Shown piece after piece: positions 18,092 through 20,635 of a DNA stretch of 32,000 bases. Position 1 is the first letter of the stretch, and the number at the start of each line of letters is the position of its first letter. Both the position numbers and the translations under genes were made by a program. This DNA comes from Candidatus Methanoperedens sp. (lineage in GTDB: Archaea > Halobacteriota > Methanosarcinia > Methanosarcinales > Methanoperedenaceae): assembly GCA_027460535.1 (NCBI GenBank), contig JAPZAR010000030.1:30001-62000 (forward strand), given 5' to 3'. The notes beneath the pieces are model-generated. The model made no database searches, was not told where the DNA came from, and saw only the letters and a program-made list of their open reading frames with translations.

Positions 18092-20635
18092 TTGGTTACT
18101 GAACCTGAAATTCACAGAATGATGAAGAGTGGAAATGTGTATGATCGCATAGTAGCACTGCATGAACTCAAGAAAAAATTCTCAACTCTCACTGATAAAG
18201 ATCAGGCAACGAAGGACATGCTAACCCTTACAAAAGATAAAGAAAGCTCTGTGCGAAAGACAGCAGCAGAAGCCCTTGGTTTTGCCTTTGCTCACATCAC
18301 TGATAAAGATCAGGCATGGAAGGACATGCTAGCCCTGACAAAGGACGAGAACTGGGATGTGCGAAGTGTTTCAGCAGAAGCCCTTGATTCCGCCTTTGTT
18401 CACCTCACTGATAAAGATCAGGCAACCAAAGACCTGCTAACCCTGACAAAGGATGAGAATTGGGATGTGCGAAGTGGTGTGGCATATGCCCTTGGTTCCG
18501 CTTTCGTCCACCTCACTGATAAAGATCAGGCAACCAAAGACCTGCTAACTTTGACAAGGGATAAGAACTGGGATGTGCGAAGTGGTGTGGCATATGCCCT
18601 TGGTTCCGCTTTCGTCCACCTCACAAATAAAGATCAGGCAACCAAAGAACTGCTAACTTTGACAAAGGATAAAGACAGCTTTGTACGAAGGAATGCAGCA
18701 GAAGCCCTTGGTTCCGCCTTTGCTCACATCACTGATAAAGATCATGCATGGAATGACCTGCTTGCCCTGACAAAGGACGAGAACTGGGATGTGCGAAAGA
18801 CAGCAGCAGAAGCCCTTGGTTCCACCTTTGTTCACGTCACTGATAAAGACCAGGCAACGAAAGACCTGTTAACCCTGACAAAGGACGAGAACTGGAATGT
18901 GCGAAGTGGTGTAGCATATGCCCTTGGTTCCGCCTTTGCTGACCTCACAGATAGAGATCAGGCAGCGAAAGACCTGCTTTCTCTGACAAATGACAAATAT
19001 AGTATTGTGCGAGCATATGCCAACCATTCACTGGGGAGAGTACATATTTATAAGGCAACAGAAGCAGAGGATATAGAAAAATTCAGAAAAGAATTAGAAA
19101 ATGCTCTGAAATTTTTTGAGAAATCTTCAAATGAAGAAATATATTCGCAGCCTGCCAGATTTTGTCTTCCATTTTACAGATCGTTCCATGCAACTATTTT
19201 TGAGAAGGACAATGCAGAGGCTAAAGTCCAGGAATATCTTAATGAAGCCAGAAGTGCAGTCGGCAGTTCAGAAGGCAGGGAAAAACTCCTTGTAGCTGTT
19301 GAGAATCTGGGAAATGCGCTGAAAGAGGCGCAGAAAGCGCGGGATTTCAATGATGAGAAATCCGACCTCAAAGCATACAGGCGATACTGCGAGCGTGCAT
19401 CTGAGCTTCTTGAAATAACGGGGGAGAAGGCCCCAAATGCCACACGGCTGATTATGAAAAGTCTACCGATAATCGATAATAGGATAAAGAATATACTGCC
19501 AGAAATTCGTGATAAAGCTATAGCAATATACAACCATACAAAAGATACTCCTCTAATGGATATCGGAATGAGAACTTGCAGGCAAGCGCAGGAATTATCT
19601 TTGAAAAATCCGGTTGGTCTAGAGATCGGGCTAGGGAGGATAATTAACACAGCAAAGGAGTGGTGCGAACATATAGGGTATGAAGGTAAAAAGAAATCAG
19701 CATGTGAGAAACTCAAATCTCTGGAGAATCTGGAAACTCAAGAAAAAGTTATAATTATTTCTGAAATTTTTGAAGATATTTCCAAGAATCTTAATATTCC
19801 TCGCATCGAGACGGTTCATATCTGTGGCACCCAAGAAAAATTAGTCAGAATAGCTGTAATTCAATTCTGTTATGAATTGACAAAATCATTTCCTCCTGTA
19901 ATTAAAAATAAAGATATGGTTAAAGCAAAGATTTTTTCAGGACTTGACATGGCAAAAAAAGATAATGCAAATATCGCTTGCCTTCCTGAACTGTGTTTAT
20001 GCGAAGAATGGAAACCTGAAATAGAGAATAATTATCCTGAAATGCTCGTTATTTGTGGAGGATTTTATAAAAATAATAGTAACGTCTGCCCCATAATAAC
20101 TAAATCCGATATAGAAATAGTCCCTCAGGCAAAAATCACGCCATCTGCTTCTGAAGACAAGGAAATGTGGGAAAACGGGATGATACCTGGAGATAGAATC
20201 TACAAATACGAAACTCGGTTTGGAAAATTTGTGATTCTTATATGCAGGGACTTTGATAGATTTGCTCATTATTTCAGGGAAAGTGATATCGATTTTATAT
20301 TTTGCCCGGCATTCAATGAAGCTAATGACAGATTTCATGCTGAAGCCAACAACCATGTTACAAAAAAACCTTCCTACATATTGATAGCGAATACAGGCGT
20401 TTATGGAGGGAGCGCGATTTTTGGGCAGGTTCATAAAAATTATTTTAATAGATTGATCGGTGATGGCTGTAAAGATGATGGAGATATGTCGTTTAAATTA
20501 TGCGAAGCTAAAAAAGGAAAAGATGAAATTATAATCGCTGATTTCAATCTAACTATTAAAACTATTGGGCCAATAAATCCTTCAGTGCCTCTGGAACCAA
20601 GTGTGAAACGTATTAAAAAGCTACCAATTTCTTAG
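18092..20635 (+). CDS. HEAT-repeat (PBS-lyase-type) protein fused to a C-terminal carbon-nitrogen hydrolase (nitrilase-superfamily) domain
   Basis: 847 aa. The TTG start at 18092 follows GGTGATGGAG.
- The N-terminal third is eight 36-aa repeats, 'LTDKDQATKDLLTLTKDENWDVRSGVAYALGSAFVH'.
- A helical linker follows.
- The C-terminal region (about nt 19840-20600) carries 'VRIAVIQ', 'IACLPELCL' (Glu), 'IYKYETRFG' (Lys) and 'FVILICRDFDRF' (Cys). This matches the E-K-C triad order of CN hydrolases. Confidence 0.8.
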   Translation: MVTEPEIHRMMKSGNVYDRIVALHELKKKFSTLTDKDQATKDMLTLTKDKESSVRKTAAEALGFAFAHITDKDQAWKDMLALTKDENWDVRSVSAEALDSAFVHLTDKDQATKDLLTLTKDENWDVRSGVAYALGSAFVHLTDKDQATKDLLTLTRDKNWDVRSGVAYALGSAFVHLTNKDQATKELLTLTKDKDSFVRRNAAEALGSAFAHITDKDHAWNDLLALTKDENWDVRKTAAEALGSTFVHVTDKDQATKDLLTLTKDENWNVRSGVAYALGSAFADLTDRDQAAKDLLSLTNDKYSIVRAYANHSLGRVHIYKATEAEDIEKFRKELENALKFFEKSSNEEIYSQPARFCLPFYRSFHATIFEKDNAEAKVQEYLNEARSAVGSSEGREKLLVAVENLGNALKEAQKARDFNDEKSDLKAYRRYCERASELLEITGEKAPNATRLIMKSLPIIDNRIKNILPEIRDKAIAIYNHTKDTPLMDIGMRTCRQAQELSLKNPVGLEIGLGRIINTAKEWCEHIGYEGKKKSACEKLKSLENLETQEKVIIISEIFEDISKNLNIPRIETVHICGTQEKLVRIAVIQFCYELTKSFPPVIKNKDMVKAKIFSGLDMAKKDNANIACLPELCLCEEWKPEIENNYPEMLVICGGFYKNNSNVCPIITKSDIEIVPQAKITPSASEDKEMWENGMIPGDRIYKYETRFGKFVILICRDFDRFAHYFRESDIDFIFCPAFNEANDRFHAEANNHVTKKPSYILIANTGVYGGSAIFGQVHKNYFNRLIGDGCKDDGDMSFKLCEAKKGKDEIIIADFNLTIKTIGPINPSVPLEPSVKRIKKLPIS
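18190..19053 (+). repeat. Intragenic tandem array, 8 x 108 bp, encoding the HEAT-type repeats
   Basis: Unit starts are at 18190, 18298, 18406 and so on, exactly 108 nt apart. Units 3 and 4 are nearly identical at nucleotide level. The last unit is degenerate. Confidence 0.9.

Follow-up and report, generated by a model that had tools for sequence, protein, structure and literature searches.

In a 32,000-nt stretch of a Candidatus Methanoperedens sp. genome (contig JAPZAR010000030.1, positions 30,001–62,000 of the forward strand; referred to here as "the window", with positions counted from its first letter), we found that an open reading frame (ORF) at 18092–20635 (+), with a TTG start and the stop codon included, encodes an 847-aa protein in which an array of HEAT repeats is joined to a C-terminal nitrilase-superfamily domain. 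Judging from the relatives of this domain, the gene probably specifies an antiviral sensor and effector in one protein, not an ordinary metabolic amidase, and we favour, with moderate confidence, the interpretation that HEAT-nitrilases act as self-contained sensor-effectors of archaeal immunity or conflict. The protein is 100% identical to a protein (P0001) from a Ca. Methanoperedens metagenome-assembled genome (MAG), which is annotated solely as "HEAT repeat domain-containing protein". An initial annotation of the window had described the product as a binder made of repeats and joined to an enzyme of the amidase type, and had paired the gene with a divergent radical-SAM/SIR2 gene; the first idea gained support and the second held only in part.

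The nitrilase domain and its active site

The C-terminal part of the protein (aa 571–847; 19802–20632, +) is assigned by profile comparison and a predicted structure to the nitrilase superfamily (CN-hydrolase), with the alpha-beta-beta-alpha sandwich fold. The PADLOC model CARF_m7--CARF_nitrilase (PDLC01989) matched aa 581–844, corresponding to the whole nitrilase half of the model, at 3.1e-86, and the PADLOC models RT_UG5-nitrilase and RTasNitrilase matched at 1.1e-10 and 3.7e-5, respectively. When a 16-sequence family profile was searched against the PDB, the best solved relative was the nitrilase domain of DRT1 (9yfd_A, 1.9e-6), followed by beta-alanine synthase, yeast Nit3, NAD synthetase and a nitrilase. 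PF00795 was matched by 14 of the 16 family members (best 1.4e-6). The same family gave no match to the window protein alone at E<=1, nor at E<=10, despite the nitrilase fold seen by profile and structure, and aa 561–847 alone found no match in the PDB (phmmer) or in Pfam as a whole; the relationship is thus visible by profiles and structure only. We then modelled aa 326–847 with AlphaFold2 (AF2) and obtained a mean predicted local distance difference test score (pLDDT) of 84, mostly >90 over aa 580–847. Foldseek with this model returned 63 PDB matches at E<=1e-3, and the best 50 were all nitrilase-superfamily enzymes, led by Nit2, N-carbamoylputrescine amidohydrolase, aliphatic amidase and beta-alanine synthase (E 5.4e-9 to ~1e-7, probability 1.0). 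The DRT1 structure 9yfd was not among these best 50, and the library is perhaps older than its release.

The predicted catalytic tetrad E633-K681-E688-C718 is intact. Three of its residues, namely the Glu E633 of an LPE motif (19988–19990, +), the Lys K681 of PQAKITPS (20132–20134, +) and the second Glu E688 (20153–20155, +), are invariant both in 57 full-length homologues and in 69 far more diverse clade members, and the Cys C718 of an ICRD motif (20243–20245, +) is invariant in the former and conserved in at least 90% of the latter. Besides the tetrad, 40+ further columns of the 57-sequence full-length alignment are invariant. In alignments of hidden Markov models (HMMs), the four motifs fall on their catalytic counterparts in Nit3, DRT1 and beta-alanine synthase: K681 lies on the Lys of "HRKVHLF" in Nit3, and C718 on the Cys of the "ICYD" motif of both DRT1 (C1116) and Nit3. 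C1116 is the catalytic Cys of the DRT1 nitrilase (PMC13275509). The initial annotation had already named a CN hydrolase here, which the PADLOC model, the family profile and the AF2/Foldseek result bear out, and it had correctly picked the Glu of CLPELCL (E633) and the Cys of ILICRDF (C718). Its choice of Lys, in YKYETRFG (K705), has to be corrected, for that position is variable and the invariant Lys is K681.

An immune-associated nitrilase clade

By profile similarity, the window nitrilase is a member of an immune-associated clade whose domains are fused to CARF, reverse transcriptase (RT), TIR, NACHT or TPR regions. The same nitrilase domain is present in the fusion proteins of four loci, L023 (a TPR-nitrilase), L024, L026 and L027, which matched the same PADLOC model at 1e-91 to 1e-243. 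Fusion of one domain to CARF, TIR-TPR, NACHT, RT and TPR is what characterises an immune effector domain that is mobile. Published work places the RT-fused C-N hydrolases in a clade separate from metabolic nitrilases (PMC9226505). The UG5 RT-nitrilase with its transmembrane (TM) partner is a validated antiphage system (PMC9122126), and the DRT1 nitrilase is needed for defence and is activated by tetramer assembly, its substrate being unknown (PMC13275509). The window protein itself has no CARF or RVT match and begins with HEAT repeats. Lacking a CARF or RT input domain, it is not a member of the CARF-nitrilases or of the DRT systems and is a carrier of the same effector domain only.

We estimated the size of the clade by a profile search of 1.84 billion representatives: 162 clusters score at E<=1e-30, and their number rises to 557 at E<=1e-10 and to 1513 at E<=1e-3. 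Nearly always, the nitrilase forms the C-terminal part and follows a variable N-terminal region. HEAT repeats occur in just 14 of the top 150 clade members, and TPR fusions make up 34 of the 69 non-HEAT representatives that were scanned, which makes solenoid plus nitrilase the dominant architecture of the clade of 557 clusters.

Some individual loci of the clade are worth describing. A Methanobacteriota MAG (L026, 1399–12300) has a type III-A operon with cas10, csm2, csm3, csm4 and csm5, directly followed by two nitrilase effectors, a 1151-aa TIR-TPR-nitrilase and a 459-aa CARF_m7-nitrilase (10921–12297; 2e-243). Methanosarcina sp. Ant1 (L024, 317–4717) encodes a 1466-aa DUF4062-NACHT-HEAT-nitrilase, in which the sensor repeats come before the enzyme. 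A retron-type RT fused to a nitrilase of the same clade is found in Methanococcoides alaskense DSM 17273 (L027, 8411–10879), a cultured strain that may offer an experimental handle.

The HEAT array and the overall architecture

The N-terminal region consists of eight in-register HEAT repeats of 36 aa (aa 31–318; 18182–19045, +), recognised by Pfam (HEAT_2 2.6e-36, HEAT 2.7e-32) and modelled by AF2 as hairpins with pLDDT >90. At the nucleotide level, Tandem Repeats Finder reported a period of 108 nt with 7.5 copies and 81% matches at 18188–18994. The signal of this array is far beyond chance, and the eight PBS-lyase/HEAT-type repeats of the initial annotation are confirmed in number and type; matches to PBS-lyase-type HEAT proteins (NblB/CpcF-type) in NCBIfam were weak. 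Scaffold positions are almost identical among the eight repeats, and the variation is clustered at repeat positions 21–23, 26–28 and 30, that is, at the start of the second helix of the repeat. Moreover, a family profile that included the HEAT columns (alignment A3) matched the alphaRep and PP2A-A HEAT structures in the PDB. The natural prokaryotic HEAT-like repeats from which the alphaRep scaffolds were derived are hypervariable at a small number of positions.

Between the repeats and the enzyme, three segments can be distinguished. The solenoid is closed by a helical cap (aa 319–415; 19046–19336, +; AF2 helices H304–414), after which comes a predicted hinge or linker of low confidence (aa ~416–465; 19337–19486, +), with a pLDDT of 47–57 over aa 416–465 in the model of aa 326–847 and <50 at aa 415–425 in the full-length model. 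Then a helical subdomain (aa 466–570; 19487–19801, +), modelled by AF2 as helices, precedes the nitrilase and is conserved together with it in the family; the PADLOC RT_UG5-nitrilase match, at aa 491–776, covers part of it. The full-length AF2 model (mean pLDDT 87.8, predicted template modelling score 0.56) shows two confident rigid bodies, the solenoid with its cap (aa 1–414) and the helical subdomain with the nitrilase, and the hinge lies between them.

Module exchange at the hinge

The hinge is also the place where the gene diverges from a close relative. The window and locus L030, whose HEAT gene lies at 5524–7629 (−), share ~92% nucleotide identity from 15404 to 19487 of the window, where the identity ends abruptly. 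At the protein level, identity to the L030 product is 86% over aa 319–465 and falls to 28% over aa 466–575. The L030 protein ends with an unrelated module of ~200 aa, which elsewhere is found as stand-alone hypothetical proteins of 186–349 aa (P0241–P0254). The breakpoint coincides with the end of the low-confidence hinge and lies in unique sequence, outside the repeat array. Two genes that are 92% identical up to the hinge and carry different effectors after it clearly exemplify module exchange. We read this difference, together with the HEAT genes without a nitrilase at L034 and L038 (see below), as a probable sign that the effector can be lost or replaced while the HEAT sensor is conserved.

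Distribution of HEAT-nitrilases and their neighbours

We further searched for the family with aa 331–847 of the window protein as query and found 209 proteins. By motif count, HEAT repeats are present in 81 of the best 120, and their number among homologues ranges from 1 to 8; most members share the helical middle region and the nitrilase. Apart from one MAG each of Freyarchaeota and Omnitrophota, the hosts are Methanoperedens, Methanogaster, Argoarchaeum, Methanophagales and other Methanosarcinales, and the subfamily is concentrated in ANME/Methanosarcinales archaea. When one genome per species was scanned (185,579 species genomes), 27 archaeal HEAT-nitrilase loci were recovered, so the gene is sporadic. 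It is sporadic even inside Methanoperedens, where it occurs at differing genomic places.

No conserved partner was seen at these loci. The proteins of the window's genomic island, the radical-SAM/SIR2/FCD protein included, gave no tblastn matches in the 27 archaeal loci, the gene tables around the two closest homologues (L040 and L041) held no relative of that protein, and all-against-all clustering of the neighbours in the 27 loci found no conserved partner gene. With 0 of 29 other loci carrying a radical-SAM/SIR2 relative and no conserved partner, the HEAT-nitrilase family appears self-contained. Recurring neighbours, namely an S-adenosylmethionine (SAM) methyltransferase, an FrhB-like protein and glutamine synthetase, were considered as candidates and rejected, because they reflect synteny among close MAGs and not a system. 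Defence-type or mobile neighbours do occur: AbiJ-TIR, RelA_SpoT and AAA_16 at L040; an integrase, a group II intron RT, PrimPol and DEAD/MZB at L041; and type I methyltransferases and Csm genes are among the neighbours as well.

The literature searched, which included the biochemistry of CARF proteins with nitrilases and STAND proteins with nitrilases, does not describe any protein in which HEAT or TPR repeats are fused directly to a nitrilase of the immune clade. The initial annotation had regarded the domain combination as undescribed, which stands for the searchable literature; in the databases, however, the architecture is common, and some members carry the JGI label "HEAT repeat protein/predicted amidohydrolase".

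The divergent radical-SAM/SIR2/FCD gene

The gene opposite to the HEAT-nitrilase gene (15580–17709, −; 709 aa), a possible partner of the HEAT module, encodes by Pfam a fusion of Radical_SAM (+BATS), SIR2_2 and FCD domains. Its radical-SAM part is ThiH/HydG-like, with the CX3CX2C motif present and a ThiH match of 5.6e-61 that is under the curated cut-off. The SIR2_2 domain is of the ThsA type, with GSG, KIHGS and GYS motifs identified by eye, and FCD is a GntR-type ligand-binding domain. As a speculation, small imino or carboxylate products of ThiH/HydG chemistry could plausibly be sensed by the FCD domain. Only about ten homologues of this rare fusion were seen, most of them in Methanoperedens, and no enzyme with a radical-SAM/SIR2/FCD fusion is described in the papers searched.

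All orthologues of 69–97% identity whose flank is readable adjoin a homologous HEAT gene, in four Methanoperedens lineages, and the partner HEAT genes are 55–86% identical in the HEAT/cap part. The two genes are arranged head-to-head in the window, in L030/L031 (with the same conserved spacer) and in L036/L037 (where the HEAT gene is cut by the contig end), and tail-to-tail in L034 and L038, and the outer flanks of the pair differ in each lineage. The partner HEAT genes of L034 and L038 end at the equivalent of aa ~467, without a nitrilase. In fact, no relative retains the nitrilase where the 3' end of its HEAT gene can be seen, which is the case in three of the four lineages; the domain is either missing or replaced, so any linkage with the radical-SAM/SIR2/FCD protein would run via the HEAT module. 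Two distant homologues of the fusion (L033 and L039, 37–38% identity) have no HEAT neighbour, and a metagenome scan for radical-SAM/SIR2/FCD loci returned just one weak radical-SAM relative and no further pairs. Beside the 37%-identity homologue in L033 lies a bSEFIR/TIR and FGE-sulfatase fusion (3046–4500, −; PADLOC bSEFIR 6.5e-42), which makes this a defence-like neighbourhood even without a HEAT partner. On these comparisons, we regard the pairing as real and narrow; it is limited to one genus, and shared ancestry may account for it.

The locus, its island and an island repeat

The HEAT-nitrilase gene and the 709-aa gene are separated, start to start, by 382 bp (17710–18091), a divergent AT-rich region with 30.1% GC that is conserved across related loci. 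The ORF, the spacing, the AT-richness and the identity of the neighbour are all as first annotated. Within the spacer, a TATA-like CTTAAATATTTAGAA at 18032–18046 is conserved and may be a promoter element. Directly 5' of the TTG stands a Shine-Dalgarno-like GGTGATGGAG, and this motif, the TTG and the N-terminal peptide are kept in two related loci. A sigma-70 promoter scan gave background-level scores and was set aside as irrelevant for an archaeon.

The gene is inside an island of ~13 kb with 37% GC, whereas the flanks have 47–48% GC and contain archaeal housekeeping genes (HerA, ThiC, Hel308-type helicase, ProRS, proteasome and FttA). The island holds, in addition to the SIR2 fusion, an ORF for an 83-aa RelN-family antitoxin-like protein (14619–14870, −; 1.4e-13), with no obvious toxin gene identified. 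Other island ORFs encode a 63-aa protein with two DnaJ-type CxxCxGxG zinc-finger motifs (21058–21249, +), a 223-aa protein of no family with a faint DUF1837/HamA match at E 0.026 (21946–22617, −), and a 390-aa protein whose N-terminal half is strongly hydrophobic, in a stretch of 25% GC (22927–24099, −). No cas genes or CRISPR array were found among the ORFs annotated over the 32-kb window.

An intergenic element of 150–190 nt, in five same-orientation copies, is confined within the window to the low-GC island. Its core, GCGCACATTCGCTTTTGCGTGCTCCCT...GGGCGGGGGGCAGTCCTCATGA (expected by chance 0), lies at 11456–11536, 13661–13741, 15120–15200, 20853–20933 and 22749–22829, with upstream extensions that start at about 11403, 13554, 15052 and 20790. 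The copies separate gene cassettes; those at 15120–15200 (+) and 20853–20933 (+) are the left and right boundaries of a unit (15200–20853) that the radical-SAM/SIR2 and HEAT-nitrilase genes share. The element matched no Rfam family, its folding z-scores are just -1 to -2, which indicates a weak predicted structure, and none of 39 fetched loci contains a copy. An 18-mer match to a viral sequence was dismissed as chance, since nothing aligns past the 18-mer. The usual end motifs of integron attC sites were not seen by eye in the repeat, and the window has no integrase. The element could be similar to a miniature inverted-repeat transposable element (MITE) or a repetitive extragenic palindromic (REP) sequence, or it could be a cassette-boundary site.

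Comparison with known systems

Nitrilase effectors and solenoid-plus-effector defence proteins are each known; their direct combination, with HEAT or TPR repeats as the solenoid and an immune-clade nitrilase as the enzyme, appears to be undescribed. One close relative by domain is CARF_m7-nitrilase, a predicted type III CRISPR ancillary effector with the same nitrilase family. The window protein differs from it in having no CARF domain, its input being the HEAT solenoid and the helical subdomain, and in the absence of cas genes and CRISPR from the ORFs of the window; without a CARF domain, activation cannot proceed by binding of cyclic oligoadenylate to CARF. DRT1 (UG1) is the best nitrilase relative of solved structure by profile, yet remote in sequence. 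In DRT1, too, an alpha-helical repeat domain precedes the nitrilase, whose effector activity is tied to the oligomeric state (PMC13275509). Compared with DRT1 and UG5, the window protein lacks the reverse transcriptase, the protein-primed DNA synthesis and the TM partner.

Systems of the DSR2 type resemble the window protein in architecture, since they also combine helical repeats and an enzymatic killing domain in one chain. The helical domain of DSR2 binds a phage protein. The CRISPR-linked HEAT_CxxC_PD-DExK model of PADLOC, which stands for a further solenoid-plus-effector protein, matches the HEAT part of the window protein at 3e-20. The effector of the window protein is a nitrilase, in contrast to the SIR2 or nuclease of these two, and the order is repeats, then enzyme. 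Finally, canonical nitrilases (Nit2, N-carbamoylputrescine amidohydrolase, aliphatic amidase and beta-alanine synthase) have the same fold and the same ordered E-K-E-C residues, but they are only 12–16% identical to the window domain, which PF00795 does not match on its own and which is preceded by a sensor-like N-terminal extension of ~570 aa.

Proposed mechanism and alternative explanations

In the model that we propose, the HEAT solenoid would be the binding and regulatory module, and the helical subdomain with the nitrilase would form the effector, connected by the flexible hinge. The nitrilase would be inactive in the resting state. Binding of a foreign protein, of viral or mobile-element origin, to the HEAT surface may then free the nitrilase domains or bring them into oligomers. 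Nitrilases are active only in oligomeric assembly, and activation by assembly is suggested here by analogy with DRT1. The target of the active enzyme would be a C-N (amide) bond in a metabolite or protein that is essential, and its hydrolysis would stop the infected cell from growing. In this genome and its close relatives, the divergent ThiH-like radical-SAM/SIR2/FCD enzyme is probably a second arm of the same defence cassette. The immune role that the initial annotation suggested for a repeat binder with an amidase-type enzyme is supported by the clade membership of the domain and by its location in a low-GC island together with the SIR2 fusion and the antitoxin-like ORF.

Several observations weigh against an immune function. 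Outside methane-cycling archaea the HEAT-nitrilase subfamily hardly occurs, which could mean a lineage-specific physiology; at many loci the neighbours are housekeeping genes only (FrhB-like, glutamine synthetase, SAM methyltransferase), many of the contigs being short; the nitrilase clade was found on no viral contig in our scan, in a set that the host's viruses lie outside; and, to our knowledge, the substrate of no immune nitrilase is known. The first two of these would suit a lineage-specific housekeeping or metabolic amidase, whose HEAT scaffold docks the enzyme on a cellular complex in the manner of PBS-lyase-type HEAT proteins. The weak NCBIfam similarity to NblB/CpcF-type proteins and the metabolic role of canonical superfamily members fit such an enzyme as well. 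We consider it rather improbable, since the domain is closest to the CARF-, RT-, TIR- and NACHT-fused nitrilases and DRT1 and not to the metabolic branches, and since the gene lies in a low-GC island, is sporadic and variably placed within Methanoperedens, varies in repeat number and exchanges modules at the hinge. An artefact is far less credible. A mis-join of the MAG at about nt 19487, or a decaying and non-functional gene, is suggested by the abrupt end of nucleotide identity to L030 and by the metagenomic source, but the HEAT-cap-helical-nitrilase order is standard in about 80 homologues, which come from numerous samples, the reading frame is without interruption, and the breakpoint avoids the repeat array, where the sequence is not unique. 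The unusual C-terminus belongs to L030, whereas the window has the standard family architecture and all the invariant columns, so that we give chimerism or decay hardly any credence.

The relation to the neighbouring gene deserves separate consideration. The HEAT protein might be the sensor or adaptor of the radical-SAM/SIR2/FCD enzyme in an obligate two-gene system, with the nitrilase as an accessory second effector; in this genome, neither gene would then function without the other. The adjacency of a HEAT gene to every readable close orthologue, in four lineages with differing flanks and in both orientations, speaks for this, as do the conserved divergent intergenic region and the shared repeat-bounded unit. 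Nevertheless, we hold such a system to be unlikely: none of the 29 other HEAT-nitrilase loci has a radical-SAM/SIR2 relative, the distant homologues stand without a HEAT neighbour, the metagenome scan added no examples, and all positive cases come from one genus and may share ancestry. The co-occurrence of the two genes proposed at first was thus recovered for the HEAT gene within Methanoperedens and not for HEAT-nitrilases in general. The nitrilase is not the conserved part of the pairing, the pair of HEAT-nitrilase and NADase as an obligate two-component system is not supported in the form first proposed, and the self-contained HEAT-nitrilase is the reading that we prefer.

A wider scenario, which we put forward only tentatively and hold to be doubtful, would combine both themes. 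The HEAT protein and the ThiH-like radical-SAM/SIR2/FCD enzyme would form an unrecognised archaeal immune module, in which HEAT is the specificity subunit with exchangeable C-terminal effectors (the nitrilase here, the ~200-aa module in L030, none in L034 and L038) and the partner links three activities, namely radical chemistry on a substrate resembling an amino acid, sensing of small carboxylates by FCD and cleavage of NAD+ by SIR2. The solenoid-nitrilases, with HEAT in archaea, TPR elsewhere and hundreds of clusters, would then make up a large class of antiviral sensors, as yet unnamed, each a single protein with amidase chemistry aimed at a central metabolite or protein.

Significance

A unique radical-SAM/SIR2/FCD fusion with which the HEAT gene is paired in a conserved way hints at another uncharacterised system; the pairing itself has narrow support. 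For the nitrilases themselves, the domains of DRT1 and the UG5 RT-nitrilase are validated antiphage effectors of unknown substrate and killing mechanism. Solenoid-nitrilases present the same effector in its simplest context, a single chain that involves neither an RT nor a DNA adduct nor a cyclic nucleotide as signal, and such a sizeable family could offer a tractable route to the nitrilase substrate. If the immune role is true, the HEAT-nitrilases would add a class of immune proteins to the methane-cycling archaea, whose defences are poorly charted.

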